NCBI GenBank assembly: GCA_958009085.1
Contig: OY253689.1
Coordinates: forward strand, 62,001-126,000
Length of the DNA stretch: 64,000 bases
Origin: Protoeuglena noctilucae
Lineage: Eukaryota
Direction: 5' to 3'
Shown: piece after piece, positions 39,101-45,725 of the stretch
Layout of the letters: every line of letters starts with the position of its first letter
Numbering within the stretch: the first letter of the stretch is position 1
Notes under the pieces: generated by a model
Database searches by the model: none
What the model saw: only the letters and a program-made list of their open reading frames with translations
Told to the model about the DNA's origin: nothing
Made by a program: the position numbers and the translations under genes

Positions 39101-39429
39101 GGCAGGCGAGGGTGGCAGTGGCGCCGCAGTTGGGGGGGTCGCGGGCGGGGGGGCGGAACGTGCGGGCGCGGCTGGCGGCGGTGTTGGACGCGCGGCTGCT
39201 GGAGGGGCCGCTTCTGGGGCTGGTGCGGGAGGAGGGGGTCGCGTACTGGGCCCCGTCGCAGCGCGTGGTGCGCGCGCGGGTGCGGCGGTGGGTGGGGCGG
39301 GCGGCGGTGGGGGAGCGCGAGGTGGAGGCGGGGCGGGTGCCCGAGGGCGCGAGGCGGCGGGCCGAGGAGACGAAGGGGGAGGTGGCGTTTGAGATGACGA
39401 GGGATGACATGTTGATGGACCTGCAGTGA
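36194..39429 (+). CDS. hrpB: HrpB-like DEAH-box RNA helicase, apparently lesioned and C-terminally truncated (possible pseudogene)
   Basis: LPI...VVVEAPPGAGKTT, QPRRLAA, DEFHER, MSATL, VLVFLPGVGEI, LHGDL, STAVAETSVTVEGV and SAEQRAGRAGRVQPG are present. There is a 31-nt duplication, an apparent frame switch near 38470, and no HrpB C-terminal domain. Confidence 0.8.
36658..36719 (+). repeat. Perfect 31-nt tandem duplication at the start of hrpB exon 2
   Basis: gggaagcgcatcgtcgtgctgcagccgcgcc occurs at 36658-36688 and 36689-36719. Confidence 0.95.
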
Positions 39430-40203
39430 TGGGTCGGAAGCCTTTTGAAAAGCGTAGACGATGGTACGCGCATGGTACGCGGCAGGAATGACCTCTTCCT
39501 GCCAGCGCCGTGTCGCGCCCCTGGCCCGGGATGCGACGTTGATGCCATGTCACCCTTTGACATACGTTGCTGGCAGCGGTTCTTCAGCCTGTACTCAGCG
39601 AAGGACGCATCCAGTCACCGGTGATAATGTCGAATCGCGTGCTCACGCGGGACGTCCGATCGGAGTCCGAGAGCTGTGTAGGCGAGGCACCGTGCGTTGG
39701 CAATCTGCCGAGGACGTGTGGACGCTCTAGAGTCCCTCGGCGCCGAGGGAGCAGGATCTGGGCAGATTCGTTAACGTGTAGTGGCGAGAGAGGCCCGGTG
39801 GCAGGTGAACCGCGGCGGACACGCGCAGGGGTCTATCCAAAGCTGCCTGTTGATGGGGAGTTACAGCACTTGCGGCTGTGGATGGTGCGGGGCGTTTCAG
39901 GCTGATATTGGTGCTACGTGCTTGCGAATGCCCTGCCACGGCGCGTTCTCGCTCTTGTAACGCGTTCCGGAACCTGCATGCAGGCGTGATGGCAAGGTTG
40001 AGTGTTTCTTTGCCACCGCGCGTCGATCTCGAACGGGTCGCGGCCTTTTGGTACATGTCCGCGTATCGCAGATGTCGGGGTAGCTGGGCGCGCCCGCCAC
40101 CGCTCGGGGGCGGGGCGCAGGCCCAATCTGCCCTCTCTTTCGCATGCATGCAGGCCGTCGGAGTGGACCCGCGCCGGGGCTTCGACAGGAAGGGATGCGT
40201 TAG

Positions 40204-42737
40204 ATGAGCGAGAAGCAAGAATGGAGAGGCGGACATGCAGGAGGGCGGGGCAGGGGCAGAGGCAGGGGCAGGGGTCGGAGTGGAGGGAACCCAGGCCCGA
40301 GCACGTCGGCGCGAGGTGGCCCCGTTTCCGTCCAGCCGCAGCCCGCACCGAGAGGGCCGCGGGCCCAGGGCCGCGAAGGGGCACGTCAGACGAGCGGTAA
40401 TCAAGGGCAGGAGGGTGGGCGAGCGACAGGGGGCGCAGGGAGTGGGAGTGGAGTGAACGGAGGGGCGAGCACGTCGGCACGAGGGGGCCCTCCCGTTTCC
40501 GTCCAAACGCACTGCAACCACTGCGATCAGATGTGGGTCCGAAAGCCCGACGCACTGGGTTCCCGTACTTGGAGCAAGGGCCTCTGGCACCAGCAGCCCG
40601 CTCCGACGGGTGCCTTTGACGAGAGAAGCCGTGTGACGATCCTGTGGGACATGGACCAGGTGATATTTAGGGTCTGTTCTTAATGCCACTATATGATGCA
40701 GTGGATTATAGCACCAAATAAGATGACATGATAAATGTTTGCCTGCTTGACCTGCATGCAGGTGCCCATTCTGTGCGACGAAACGTCTATTCTAAAAGAA
40801 CATAAATTAAGGGTGAGTATCTGGCATATTTATGGCATGAAATTTACTGTGCTGACACTTTAGGAGACATGCGCTTTACGCTGCTCGCATTCTGCAGGGT
40901 CAACCATCCATGACCCACTCTGATGTCCACAATGCTCGTCAGCTGTGGTCCACCACCCGGTACGGGATTCTTCTGGAAGCTTTTGGCTCGAGTTTGGGGG
41001 TCGGTGTACAAGTGGAGCTGAAAGGTGTGAAGAAAATTACTCCAAACACTTCTACGGACCCAGACCCAGACATCAAGATTCGCAACCACGTGGACGTGGT
41101 GCAAGTTTTGCAAGTCGAAGATGTCAAAAGTGAGTAAGATGTTTGTGTTAATTTCTTGATTTCCAATTTTCATCTTTTTTAACTATAAATTGCTTCGCAC
41201 AAACTCGCAGAAAAAACGGAGAACTGGATCAAGGCTGTCCTTCAAGATGCTAACCGGGGTGACGCCCTTGTTCTCATAAGCAGCAATCACAAAGACTACA
41301 AGACTAGCCTTGAAGAAGCCAGAGACGAGAAAGGTACGTGCGCCTCACAGCCTTGGTACGCCGTTTTATGTGCGATTGTTTTCCCCCCTTTCCACCCCGC
41401 GTTGTTTTATGTGTACAAAAGTGAAAATATTACTGATATTACTGATATTTAATTACATGTTACTACAATAATACTTTGCCAACATTATATCATGCAAGCG
41501 TCCTTTGCAATAAATGCGGATGTTAAAGCACATTGGGTACCAGTGGCGATTATTTCTCCACGCAGGGATGAACATCTACCTTCTCGGCACGGATGACGGT
41601 GTGGGCGATGAGCTGCGCGACGTCGCCCATTGGTATCAGGTGCGCAAGCACATGCACTTGAATTCATTGCTTATACTTGTTCATCTTTCAGCTTCTGATG
41701 GCAAATGTGGCGCGTATTGGTTGCTGCAGAAGTTTACTGCTTTACTGGGAATTCGAGGTCAAAATTGGACGCCACGGTCTCAGCGGGAGGCAGCTTGGGA
41801 AATCAGCAGTGAGAAGAAGGACCGGAGGTGGGCTGTGGACAATATGAAGGAGGTGCAGTTAGAGGGGCAAGAGGGGCAGGGAAAGGGGCAGGGGCAGGGG
41901 CAAGAGGGGGGAATGCAACTAACAAAATCCTCAGAGACACGTTCTTACACCACGGTTGTCAAAGACCGCACCCTAGAAATATCAGACACCAATATTTCAC
42001 TGAACCTTTCTTCCAGCCGGTATGCTTTTCATGTCCAAGGCAAGGGAGTGCTTAAGCTCAAGAATGTGGACCTTCAGAAAAGCGGAATTTGGTGCGAAAG
42101 GGGGGGTGAGGTTATTTTAGAAGACGTGAGTGTGTTTGATGCCCCGGACAGCGGGATTTACGTCGATGGGTATGGCAAAGTCACTTTCACACGTGGCGAA
42201 ATCAAGGGGACCGTCAGGCACAACGGGGTCACTTGCAGGGATGGCGGCAAGGTAGAGCTAGAAGACGTCGCAATCTCTGACTGCAGTGTGCATGGCGTTC
42301 TATGTGTCGGCATGGGCAGCGAAATGAGGGTAGAGGGGACGGATATAAGCAGCTCGAGAACTTTCAACGGGGTGTACTGTGGCAATGACGGAAAGGTGAT
42401 CTTGACCAACGTCCATGTCCGTGACTGCAAGAGATCTGCGGTGTACTGCACAGGCGAAAAGGCCAATGTGGAAATCAGTGGTGGGTCTCTTTCTAGTTCC
42501 AAGTCGGAACACGGGGTGTGGTGCAAGTACAAAGGGTCCAAGGCTACTGTTAGGAATGTAAATATTAATAACTGTATGGGCTATGGTCTGTTCACCGAGG
42601 ATGATGGCAGCGCCATCATAGTGGAGGAGGGCTGCACGTTTGCTGAGTGCGCCAAAGGGAACATATACATTTGTGGTCAGATATACGAGACGCGCCCCGC
42701 ACCGCCAGCTGGCAGAAATGGTGGTGCTTTGCATTAG
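40204..42737 (+). CDS. 6-exon gene: RGG/low-complexity N-terminus, NYN (LabA/DUF88-type PIN-like) domain, right-handed parallel beta-helix
   Basis: Exons 40204-40659, 40762-40812, 40898-41129, 41211-41333, 41566-41639 and 41730-42737 join in frame through GT-AG introns (phases 0,0,1,1,0). Motifs: VTILWDMDQ...DALVLISSNHKDYKTSLEEARDEKGMNIYLLG...DELRDVAHWY, then about 8 G-[IV]-x-C repeats of 23-25 aa. Confidence 0.75.
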
Positions 42738-43354
42738 TGTGCCTCCAGCAGGCTGCGTGCCTATGACACGTGCCTGCAGCGCTGCCAGTATCGCCTCGGA
42801 CGCTGCCGTGGATGCCATCTGTGTTCGCCCAGACTGCGCATCCCAGCAAGGTATGCTGTGTTGAGTCAGCAAGGCGGCAACTTGGCTTTGCACAGGAGAG
42901 CGTGCCCTGCCACACGTGTCCACGACCCTAATGTACATGTGTTGCAGTGCTGTCGACTGGGGCGGCAGGCTTTTAAACAGCATAGGACATTAGGTGCTTG
43001 CCTCCTTTTCTCAGTCTTAATCCTAGGGTACGCACTTGGTCAGGGGCCGACATGAACAGCTGCCGAGGGGCGGCAAGCTGGTTTGTTTGGGGCATTGTTA
43101 CTGGTGTTTGGCCGGCATAGCCATGGCGCGCAACATCAAAGGGCACCGGGGCTAAAGGAGTCAACAACACGGGCGGTGCCAGCGCTGCGACTGCGCTACG
43201 CTAGGAAGCCCAACTGCTATGCCGCTTTTGTGACCTGATATTGCTAGAGCCTTGTATAGACGTGGTCCCTTTCGTCTAGCAGCGCCTAAAGTGAAAGCGA
43301 ACCCATGTATCCTATCACTCAAAAATGCGTGAACGTGGCTAGTGACCAAGTCTA

Positions 43355-45725
43355 TCAAGCAGCCACCTGGCGGACAGCGCGTGCCAGTGCCTCCTCAGCC
43401 TGGGGCCATCCCTTGAGGGATGGCAAGTAGTTGACGTCGATCACGTGGTGGGTGCCATCTCGGGCATCCACAATGATGTCAATGCCCAGCACGGGGAGCG
43501 ACAGGGACCTGGGACGGACGAGGGGTGGAAGAGAGCTGTGATTGGAGTGCGCTTTTGGACCGAGAATCGAACCAACAAAGACTTAGCTGTTCGCCAAAGC
43601 GCCTTAAATCAGGTATCACCTGTGCAGTGCCTCCGCAATGGCTGCGACCGCCTCCTCCCTCAACGCACACCCCGCCGCAGTCGTTGACTGCCCTTGATCC
43701 ACATCATGCCTCTCGTCTCTCTCATGTTCCTGCAACACCCCATGCTCCTGGCCGCCCCTGTGCTCTCCCGCCCACGGCCCCAGCAACCCCGCCACGTCCC
43801 TTGCATTGTCGCGGAGGCTATCGAAGACCACCCCCTCGCAGTGCCAGGACCCCAGGCGCACCGTGAAAGGTCCCTTGCCCGCAATGGTGAGCGGTTGAGC
43901 TGACGTCGATGCGGCACCTGGGCACCAGTGGAGGTGAGGTGATGCATAGCTATCAGCTGCACCCAGTGTAACGACTCGCTCCCACCGCCCACTCGCCTTT
44001 TGCACCAACACCCCCGCCCCGCCCCGGCCCGGGAACCAGGTCGGGAATCGAATCCTTGTCCTTGACGTGCAACAGCCCCCCCGCGCTGTACACCTTGAAC
44101 AGCCTGGCCCCGTGCGGCACGTACGCCTGCAGCAGCACAGGGCCCTCCACCAGAGACGCAGGCAGCACCGTGGTCGAAGCGACTGTGGATGCTCTGACAG
44201 TCGATGTCATCGAACCAGCACCACGGTTGGTATCCCTAGTGTCACTGGCGTCGCCAGCGCTGCCCCCCGCAGTGTCTGCTTCCCATGCGCCGCAAACCGC
44301 CGCCATTTCGTGGGCCTCCCGGGCCCAGCAGGCCACCCGGGACTTTGCCAGAAACGGGGCCCTCATCCCAGCCGCCATGGCCTCCGTCAGGGCATCGCCG
44401 TCCATCGCACGCGCAGCCACGGATGCAGGTACGCCCACTGCCACCTCACTGGCATTACATGCCTGGCAACCCAACGCTGCCCCAGCCCCTGCACCCGTCT
44501 CAGCCCTCGGTTCGCCACCGCTGCCACTCACACCGCCCCTTGCCATCGGCACACGCATGTCCGCCAGTGCCGCACCCAAGGTCTCTGCCATGTCTAGGCG
44601 ATCCGCGACCTTCCGTAACTGACTCAGGGGACCCACCACCGCCACGCCTGCAGCTTCGGCAGCCCTGCGTTGCGGGCAATGGCAGCGATGTGAGAGATGG
44701 GTACATTGGCAAGTCGCAAGTGGCTGCTCTGTGGACCCATGGACAGAGTTTGCTGCCGGGTTGCCAACCCATCTCCACCACCTCACCGGCACCACTGCGT
44801 GATGCGGGGGGCAAAGTCATAGCGTCCCCCGATGGGTCCATGGGGAGGGTGAACTGCTACCAAGTCATCTGTGGCCTTGTGCAGCAGCGCGTCGATGCGT
44901 TGGGAGAAGGGGAGCGAGAAGGGGGAACCAGAGGGGCACGACTGCGGGTGTGGGTGAGGGGACGAGAGGCATGATGTGGGGCTAGCATACTAACAAATCC
45001 TCAGTGAGCCCAACATCGTTACTAGCATCCCCTCACCTCCCAGAGAGGCACGAAGGACACCCTGTGGCTCCCCAGGAGGGGCACCAGGCCCCGGGTCGTG
45101 AGCTCCCGGGTGCGGTGGGCAGACAGCACGTACGCGCACACCCGCACGGCCAGGGACGAGCGGAGCGAGGCAGCTGCGGCGTAACTCTGCGGGGCGACGA
45201 GAGCGGCGGTGTGGATCGATGTGGCCACGCCACCCGAGGGGCAGGTCAACCATACCGCATGCATCAGCCCATGCACGGCCCGCCACTCGCCAGGAAGTGA
45301 GCCAGTGCATCTGCGTCGCACGGCAGCTGGACCTCCTCAGACCCGTTCCCTCTCGCGTCCCGGCATCGGGCCACGGCGTCGACCCTCCCCGTGGCTGCAT
45401 CCCACTGCAGCGACACGTCGCACACTGCGCCCTCCCCTCCCGGCCCGTGGAACCGGACGAGGCTCGACGTCATCGACGGCACCTCCGACGCAGCATCCGA
45501 GTCGCACGTAAGCGGTTCCGCTCGCACATTGGCGCCGGCGCTTTCGATCGCGGACAGCGCCGCGAGGAGTGCGCGATGAAAGTCCCCTAGCAGCGCAGGA
45601 GGGCTCCCTGCAATTTCGAGCAGCGACCGACCCGGTTCATGAGCTTCATCAGGACCGCGTGGGAACACATCTACATTCATCGCGGCCCTATGTTGCTCGC
45701 ACGGCTCGGGCGCGGCGATAGGCAT
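43355..45725 (-). CDS. ITPK: Inositol 1,3,4-trisphosphate 5/6-kinase (ATP-grasp), ITPK4-like with an N-terminal extension
   Basis: VCAYVL...RGLVP...SFVPL, DALLHKATDDL, FLAKSRVACWAREAHEMAAV, LLQAYVPHGARLFKVY, GIDIIVD...HVIDVNYLPS. Confidence 0.85.

Follow-up and report, generated by a model that had tools for sequence, protein, structure and literature searches.

A transcribed gene of Protoeuglena noctilucae joining an RG-rich tail and a possibly NYN-like domain to a parallel beta-helix

Gene model and transcripts

We analyzed a window of 64,000 nucleotides (nt) from the eukaryote Protoeuglena noctilucae (contig OY253689.1 of assembly GCA_958009085.1, positions 62,001 to 126,000), and in particular its segment 40204-42737 on the forward (+) strand, where an earlier note, made from the sequence alone, had proposed that six exons splice in frame into one protein with an RG-rich N-terminus, a domain resembling NYN ribonucleases and a parallel beta-helix. 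All coordinates given here refer to the window, and all features of the gene lie on the + strand. Rebuilt from their coordinates, the six exons do join in frame, giving a coding sequence of 1944 nt that encodes 647 amino acids (aa) plus a stop codon; the five introns have GT..AG ends in 5/5 cases, and the ATG at 40204 lies immediately 3' of an in-frame TAG. The motifs named in the note (RGRGRG, CNHC, VTILWDMDQ, LVLISSNHKDY, DELRDVAHWY and a Q/G linker, QEGQGKGQGQGQEGG) are all found in the spliced protein, CNHC contributing C104 and C107, and so is MNIYLLG. The segment is one real, transcribed nuclear gene, probably with at least seven exons, six of which are coding.

Coding exon 1 (40204-40659, 152 codons) holds the RG-rich low-complexity region, the CNHC motif and a first strand, VTILWDMDQ, and is overlapped by RNA contigs at 40287-40405 and 40493-40656. 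It is followed by intron 1 (40660-40761; 102 nt, 39% GC), exon 2 (40762-40812; 17 codons, with an RNA contig extending to 40786), intron 2 (40813-40897; 85 nt) and exon 3 (40898-41129; 232 nt, RNA contig 40943-41129). Intron 3 (41130-41210; 81 nt, 31% GC) precedes exon 4 (41211-41333), which contains LVLISSNHKDY and the region of a weak NYN profile match, and intron 4 (41334-41565; 232 nt) precedes exon 5 (41566-41639), with MNIYLLGTDDGVGDELRDVAHWYQ. The basis for introns 2 and 4 is their GT..AG ends and the reading frame. Intron 5 (41640-41729; 90 nt) is stop-free and keeps the frame, and exons 5 and 6 therefore form one open reading frame (ORF 41514-42737) whether this intron is kept or removed. 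Exon 6 (41730-42737 including the stop codon; 335 aa) encodes a helix, the Q/G linker and the beta-helix, and is reached by RNA contigs spanning 41923-43400.

The RNA evidence comes from three runs (X1-X3) of one marine metatranscriptome study, placed on 39600-43400, all records being contigs. The stretch is complete in DNA sequencing runs and partial in the three RNA runs, whose contigs cover exons 1, 3 and 6 and continue beyond 43400; runs X2 and X3 contribute only partial exon cover and matches to a (GGGGCA)n-like simple repeat. Joints in RNA fall at the predicted borders of two introns. At intron 1, one contig joins 40656 to 40759, skipping 102 nt (40657-40758) that read GT..AG with the cut moved by +3, and its shorter side is 28 nt long. 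At intron 3, a contig has 41129 directly followed by 41211, with 19 nt on its shorter side and one extra A in an A-run. RNA thus agrees with the note on introns 1 and 3, leaves introns 2 and 5 without cover, and crosses the acceptor of intron 4 unspliced.

Several points weigh against this gene model and would favour an alternative in which the two halves are separate genes, or in which translation is confined to the beta-helix ORF, exons 2-5 being non-coding. Introns 2, 4 and 5 are unconfirmed by RNA, and 41632-41885, the exon 5/6 region, has no RNA cover in run X1; the unspliced contig, at 41423-41586, runs over the intron 4 acceptor and the border of exon 5. At the exon 3/4 joint, splicing makes a run of ten A (41125-41129 plus 41211-41216) that encodes KKK within V-K-K-K-T, and the sole RNA contig over it has 11 A, which would break the frame. 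Moreover, the exon 5-6 ORF is the only part of the gene that occurs as a called protein in the database (P0001, P0088). The eleventh A may stem from slippage, from faulty assembly or from a difference between strains, and the unspliced contig may reflect intron retention, pre-mRNA or carried-over DNA; a search of 39400-43800 with Rfam returned one sub-threshold chance match only, and no RNA family at 41423-41586.

Against the alternative stand the uninterrupted frame of exons 5 and 6, the single 647-codon frame given back by five GT..AG introns and the RNA joints at introns 1 and 3, while the database ORFs would stem from intron-blind gene calling. Because exons 5 and 6 share one stop-free frame, the end of the middle domain is joined to the beta-helix whether or not intron 5 is removed, contrary to the note's own caveat that the two halves might turn out to be separate genes. 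Over exons 2-5, moreover, 160 codons stay free of stops at a GC content of about 50%, for which we estimate a chance of about (61/64)^160 = 5e-4. We regard a wrong gene model as highly improbable, and a single-gene fusion of exons 1-5 with the beta-helix half as very likely.

Upstream of the ATG, an RNA contig of run X1 (39658-39805) ends in nine loose letters, CCGTCGGAG, which equal 40155-40163, just 3' of an AG. An intron of 349 nt with GT..AG ends is therefore likely in the 5' untranslated region (UTR) at 39805-40153, on the short support of 9-10 nt beyond the joint, and it would follow a 5'-UTR exon that covers at least 39658-39804. At the other end of the gene, one RNA contig of 1287 nt runs from within exon 6 (42431) past 43400, which suggests either a long 3' UTR or an overlap with the 3' end of a convergent downstream gene.

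The first 100 residues of the protein are rich in G, R, P, A, S and Q and include GGRGRGRGRGRGRSGG at residues 13-28, with six RG dipeptides in a row at 40246-40278 (residues 15-25/26 of the translation). The RG-rich N-terminus described in the note is thus plainly there, and the clustering of its RG dipeptides marks the tail as a candidate RG/RGG-motif region, of a type predicted to bind RNA. Exon 1 also carries a direct duplication of about 70 nt (40271-40340 resembling 40439-40511, 83-90% identical, at a spacing of 168-171 nt), which repeats the peptide ...STSARGGP.VSVQ.... One GGGGCA-type simple repeat occurs twice: at 40247-40283, in exon 1, it encodes RGRGRG, and at 41873-41909, in the exon 6 linker, QGQGQG. 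DNA run X4 and RNA run X3 contain its words in great abundance (bins 41759-42012), so that it is probably a genome-wide microsatellite.

The beta-helix half and its relatives

From profile and structure prediction, the C-terminal half of the protein is certain to be a right-handed parallel beta-helix. Exon 6 matches Pfam Beta_helix (PF13229) at 77.7 bits, the cut-off being 25.9 (E 9.9e-22, in three stretches), and NosD (PF05048) at E 1.1e-6. In an AlphaFold2 model of exon 6 built on a 37-row alignment (mean predicted local distance difference test score, pLDDT, 83; predicted template modelling score, pTM, 0.79), residues 75-320 of the exon (41952-42689) have a pLDDT of 95-98 and form about ten coils with a period near 24 residues. 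They are preceded by a helix (residues 15-37) and by the Q/G-rich linker (41841-41945), predicted to be disordered, with pLDDT <50 at exon-6 residues 37-61 and 65-69. Most of the Foldseek matches listed from the PDB are proteins with a right-handed beta-helix (best E 2.4e-4, identity about 10%), among them GH87 glucanase, tailspikes, AlgG/AlgE4, adenovirus LH3 and NosD, and a phmmer search of PDB sequences with exon 6 returned none at E<=1. The fold that the note had read from the sequence is therefore the one that Pfam, AlphaFold2 and Foldseek give, with about ten coils in place of the eight or so that it had counted.

The usual function of PbH1 proteins is to bind carbohydrates or to act on them. 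Fold and repeat profile agree between exon 6 and AlgG, AlgE4, phage tailspikes and adenovirus LH3, but identity to solved beta-helix structures is only about 10%, and no catalytic residues are assignable in exon 6. Unlike secreted carbohydrate enzymes with a beta-helix, the 647-aa protein has no signal peptide by eye, and it is therefore probably intracellular rather than a secreted enzyme of that kind.

Among 1.84 billion representative proteins, phmmer with exon 6 found 87 at E<=1e-3, 20 at E<=1e-10 and 6 at E<=1e-30, self included. The best relatives (P0002, P0004, P0006-P0008) are unnamed proteins with 35-38% identity over the helix, encoded on ENA/Logan/JGI contigs of up to 492 kb. Together with P0092, which goes with P0004, and P0009, they match over the helix at E 3e-50 to 2e-24 and share with exon 6 a coil unit of about 24 residues with the pattern GV.C ... 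GG ... V ... DC. Their N-terminal parts are dissimilar to the N-terminal 330 residues of the P. noctilucae protein. Unlike the present gene, which is GC-poor, these relatives show the abundance of G, A, R and V that GC-rich coding predicts. Only Beta_helix/NosD exceeds the curated Pfam cut-off in them, also when E-values of up to 5 are admitted. By sequence similarity, the exon 6 helix is a member of a small unnamed family in which the N-terminal parts of the other members differ.

A Pfam scan of 28 of the top relatives found Beta_helix in 27/28 and NYN in 0/28; their N-terminal parts either match no Pfam family or carry AAA (P0020), caspase with SH3_3 (P0025) or protein kinase (P0032). NYN is likewise found in 0/20 long beta-helix relatives with precomputed Pfam domains, which are giant bacterial proteins of 1247-3560 aa, relatives of 600-1200 aa falling outside this range. 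In the open-access literature searched, no paper brings together 'NYN domain' and 'beta-helix', nor 'NYN' and 'PbH1'. An RG tail, an NYN-like domain and a beta-helix would thus form a combination that we found neither in the relatives nor in that literature, in line with the note, which called the fusion unusual.

Searches with the N-terminal part itself were equally empty. Spliced residues 100-330 show no similarity to any of the 87 relatives except the gene's own ORF, a word-index search with the exon 5-6 ORF found only itself, and no protein of 136-2000 aa shares the words of exon 3 in an index of 5.8 billion clusters. Because neither the 87 relatives nor the word-index searches yield a match, the N-terminal 330 residues appear to be an orphan within the searches made. 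An exact 30-mer of exon 4 was not found in metagenome contigs, and close relatives of exon 6 were not found in viral contigs, JGI metagenome contigs or prokaryote genomes; nor did the word-index and metagenome searches bring up a copy of the gene free of introns. In the ESM Atlas, exon 3 has no usable match and exon 6 meets only generic Beta_helix clusters below 0.9.

The N-terminal parts of the closest relatives are conserved but unplaced. P0004 and P0009 have a Cys/His-rich N-terminal stretch, and P0002, P0007 and P0008 share a motif like ...LGQPSE..R.AAWEAV...GAGL.WAEVEA...; the N-terminal parts of the closest relatives have no sequence match in the PDB. P0091 and P0006 may lie in one genome, the longest contig being 291,994 nt for both. 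Three impressions gained by eye were unsupported: an 'AAWE...WA.V' helix upstream of the beta-helix in common with the relatives, an RBR/IBR-like zinc module in P0004/P0009 (no PDB matches), and an F-box in P0013 (F-box-like E 0.24, no PDB matches).

The middle domain and its resemblance to NYN

Between the RG-rich tail and the linker lies a putative alpha/beta domain (40612-41759, spliced residues ~137-322) that is NYN-like at the level of motifs only. That it is derived from NYN, or structurally like it, is a possibility to which we would give slightly less than even weight. The proposed layout is like that of MARF1/limkain-b1 and plant DNE1, NYN endoribonucleases of eukaryotes that have accessory RNA-binding modules, in that an NYN-type alpha/beta domain would stand beside an RNA-binding region, and the motifs follow the same order (strand-1 h-h-h-D-x-x-N/Q, LxSxx-DF/Y, G-x-x-V/I-x-h-h-G). 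Unlike these proteins, the one described here has no LOTUS/OST-HTH or RRM, and has an RG-rich tail and a beta-helix instead.

We built NYN profiles from prokaryote-genome loci matching PF01936, comprising 55 and then 84 domains. The 84-sequence profile scores the spliced domain at 9.9 bits (E 3.9e-5 for one comparison), above 2001 shuffles, the score having risen from 8.3 bits as the profile was widened from 55 sequences. The match pairs profile positions 97-151 (strand 4, helix, strand 5, helix), that is the C-terminal third of the bacterial LabA-like NYN domain (PF01936, COG1432; 2qip), with residues 256-312 of the spliced protein. With hhalign, NYN gives P 0.0022 and then 8.7e-4, at a probability of 13-23%. 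In a global hhalign alignment the domain stays colinear with the profile along its full length: RVTILWDMDQV is set against R-v-a-v-f-i-D-a-a-N-l, CDETSIL against the conserved D29, HVD against D90 (at low confidence) and LVLISSN against vvlvSGD, and the strand-1 R and D and the S of SGD line up. The score of this alignment is reached by 1/337 shuffles, and the N-terminal two thirds of the profile align at low confidence only. NYN is the best of the eight alpha/beta families compared; profiles for PIN, NYN_YacP, HAD_2, TIR_2, Response_reg and HGTP_anticodon give E 0.06-0.16 or no match, and hhalign P 0.15-0.41. A HAD-phosphatase reading of WDMDQ / LISS / GTDDGVGD was considered and set aside (HAD_2 E 0.14, hhalign P 0.3).

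These results have to be weighed against an alternative in which the middle domain is unrelated to NYN, being a lineage-specific orphan or another Rossmann-like alpha/beta fold. WD..Q, LISS..DY and G..I.LLG would then be generic strand-loop patterns, and the gene a beta-helix family member with a young N-terminal extension. We consider this doubtful, yet a substantial possibility, and a number of observations count in its favour and against the NYN assignment. The Mur_ligase_C profile reaches 6.1 bits on the exon-4 motif alone (E 5.6e-4, reached by 2/2001 shuffles, hhalign P 0.0099). At 8-10 bits the NYN match is near library-level noise, since by our own arithmetic E 3.9e-5 times 24,736 Pfam models is about 1 library-wide; Pfam itself, run on separate exon pieces rather than on the spliced protein, gave no NYN match at E<=10. 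A profile of a 40-sequence NYN subset, run against all PDB sequences, scores 2qip at 157.7 bits and, over the full profile, the MARF1 NYN structures 5yaa and 6fdl at 26.6 and 25.7 bits, but it also gives 20 bits to a designed 'Rossmann 2x3 fold' protein. Because the middle domain obtains 8-10 bits over one third of the profile (about 10 with the 84-sequence profile), and MARF1 about 26 with the 40-sequence subset, it is not a typical NYN domain. Nor is the test independent, as the score is driven by those motifs from which the note had picked NYN.

The empty word search with exon 3, the dissimilar N-terminal parts of all 87 beta-helix relatives and the absence of the invariant Asp of SGD (profile D113) also fit an unrelated domain. 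On the other side, NYN stands above the seven other alpha/beta profiles and the shuffles, its score rises as the profile is broadened, the order and spacing of the motifs fit NYN over the whole domain, and an RG-rich tail would suit an RNA-related domain. What holds of the NYN assignment proposed in the note is that it is the best of the eight families with a colinear alignment; membership in PF01936 is not established, the match being insignificant at library scale. In sequence comparisons with the PDB, exon 3 has no match, and two hits of exon 4, neither of them an NYN protein, were judged chance: NCOA5 at E 0.059, a value summed over three weak repeats of a single segment, and MurE at E 1.5. 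DUF7944, at E 0.16 in the Pfam run on the pieces from exons 1, 3, 4 and 5, was also taken as chance.

The residues expected in an active site bear on what such a domain could do. A review of the PIN superfamily names three acidic positions as almost invariant: the Asp that follows strand 1, a residue at the N-terminus of helix 4, and another that follows strand 4. For MARF1, PMC6217404 reports that D178, D215, D246 and D272 are each indispensable for RNA cleavage, that strand 4 ends with D272, which S270 precedes by two residues, that N181 and S270 are also conserved, and that D272A phenocopies the null mutant. In our alignment of 55 bacterial NYN sequences, D13, N16, D90, D113 and D115 are conserved in 53-55 of the 55 (D113 in 55/55, N16 in 53/55). 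The middle domain retains the strand-1 Asp (WDMDQ) and has a Ser at S111 (MARF1 S270), whereas the Asn after strand 1 (profile N16, MARF1 N181) is aligned to Gln, and S-G-D of strand 4 reads S-S-N, with the Asn of SSNHKDY at the position of profile D113 and MARF1 D272. Three residues beyond this Asn lies an Asp (KDY), which HMMER places on the second Asp of SGDxDF. The four aspartates of a MARF1-type NYN are thus not all present, the equivalent of D272 being Asn.

The note had suggested an RNA-binding or RNA-cleaving effector. Because the residue at the MARF1 D272 position is Asn, cleavage is less likely than it supposed, and if the domain is NYN-derived, a degenerate, binding-only version is more likely than an active ribonuclease. 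An active NYN ribonuclease with an RG tail, fused to a ligand-sensing beta-helix and serving in defence or RNA surveillance, is in our judgement unlikely. It would draw on the weak but colinear profile evidence, on the strand-1 Asp, on the possibility that the KDY Asp substitutes for the missing one, and on the effector-like N-terminal domains (caspase, kinase, AAA) of other beta-helix relatives. It is at odds with the need for all four MARF1 aspartates reported in the text cited above, with the Gln in place of the conserved Asn, and with the want of a link to defence, the neighbours being ordinary housekeeping genes and no relatives having been found in viral contigs. A defence or RNA-surveillance role is pure speculation.

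Genomic setting and possible role

Pfam scanning of the 114 long ORFs of the window identified Sec6, TMEM17-like, GT4, LRR, PRP21/Surp, TPR, amino-acid permease, CXC and SNF2 domains, with a DEAD-like ORF upstream of the gene and, downstream on the other strand, an inositol-trisphosphate kinase-like ORF. What the data themselves show of the source is a marine eukaryote, rich in GC and bearing cilia. To judge from these domains, the genes of the window are ordinary eukaryotic nuclear genes, and nothing suggests a mobile or defence island; no flanking repeats suggestive of a transposon were seen around the gene.

In composition the gene stands apart from its surroundings. Against a window mean of 65%, GC content measured in 200-nt windows falls below 50% at 40601-42200 (minimum 36.5%) and at 42381-42680; elsewhere there are five isolated spots below 50%, none under 46%, and no other such stretch exceeds 300 nt. 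Introns have 31-46% GC and exons 2-6 39-60%, and GC at third codon positions (GC3) is 0.57-0.59 in exons 2-6, compared with 0.68-0.94 in six neighbouring ORFs supported by Pfam.

We also observed a motif, TGCATGCAG, three times within 800 nt (39975-39983, 40145-40153 and 40753-40761), extended to the palindrome CTGCATGCAG at 39974-39983 and 40752-40761 and not at 40145. Two of these copies end exactly at the acceptors of the putative 5'-UTR intron and of intron 1. In the window the motif has 7 strand-matches, 1.6 being expected and 7 being reached by no shuffle. Further downstream, a perfect inverted repeat of 19 nt (43699-43717 and 44961-44979, arms 1243 nt apart) flanks the inositol-trisphosphate-kinase-like ORF on the minus strand.

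Our best explanation of the whole, which we hold tentatively and a little short of an even chance, is that an RG tail, a lineage-restricted domain resembling NYN and a beta-helix together make up an RNA-associated adaptor or scaffold. A disordered RG-rich tail of about 100 residues would be followed by an alpha/beta domain of about 185 residues, restricted to this lineage and bearing only a weak colinear resemblance to NYN domains (LabA/MARF1-type, PIN-fold). Tail and middle domain might engage RNA, binding rather than cutting it because the key acidic residue is missing, and the beta-helix may serve as a rigid platform for protein or ligand binding.

A broader reading, which appears improbable, would place the gene in a modular eukaryotic sensor-effector family, with a Cys-laddered beta-helix as recognition module and a swappable N-terminal effector. 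Here the effector would be the RG tail with an NYN-derived, RNA-targeting domain; in other members modules that are Cys-rich or otherwise unplaced would take that place, and the caspase, kinase or AAA domains would be carried by distant, probably bacterial, beta-helix relatives. The low-GC body and AT-rich introns would then mark the gene, active in the ocean, as recently arrived or as a conflict gene that evolves fast.

The significance of the gene depends on the origin of the middle domain, and neither outcome by itself opens a long-standing question. Should that domain have another origin than NYN, the gene would still be a clean case of a lineage-restricted beta-helix family gaining orphan N-terminal domains, and, sharply GC-poor with its introns in a chromosome of 65% GC, it would bear on the origin of compositional outliers. 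If it is truly NYN-derived, the protein would show a domain combination found nowhere else in this analysis, and would tie a solenoid recognition module to RNA metabolism in a microbial eukaryote of the sea, where the gene is expressed.

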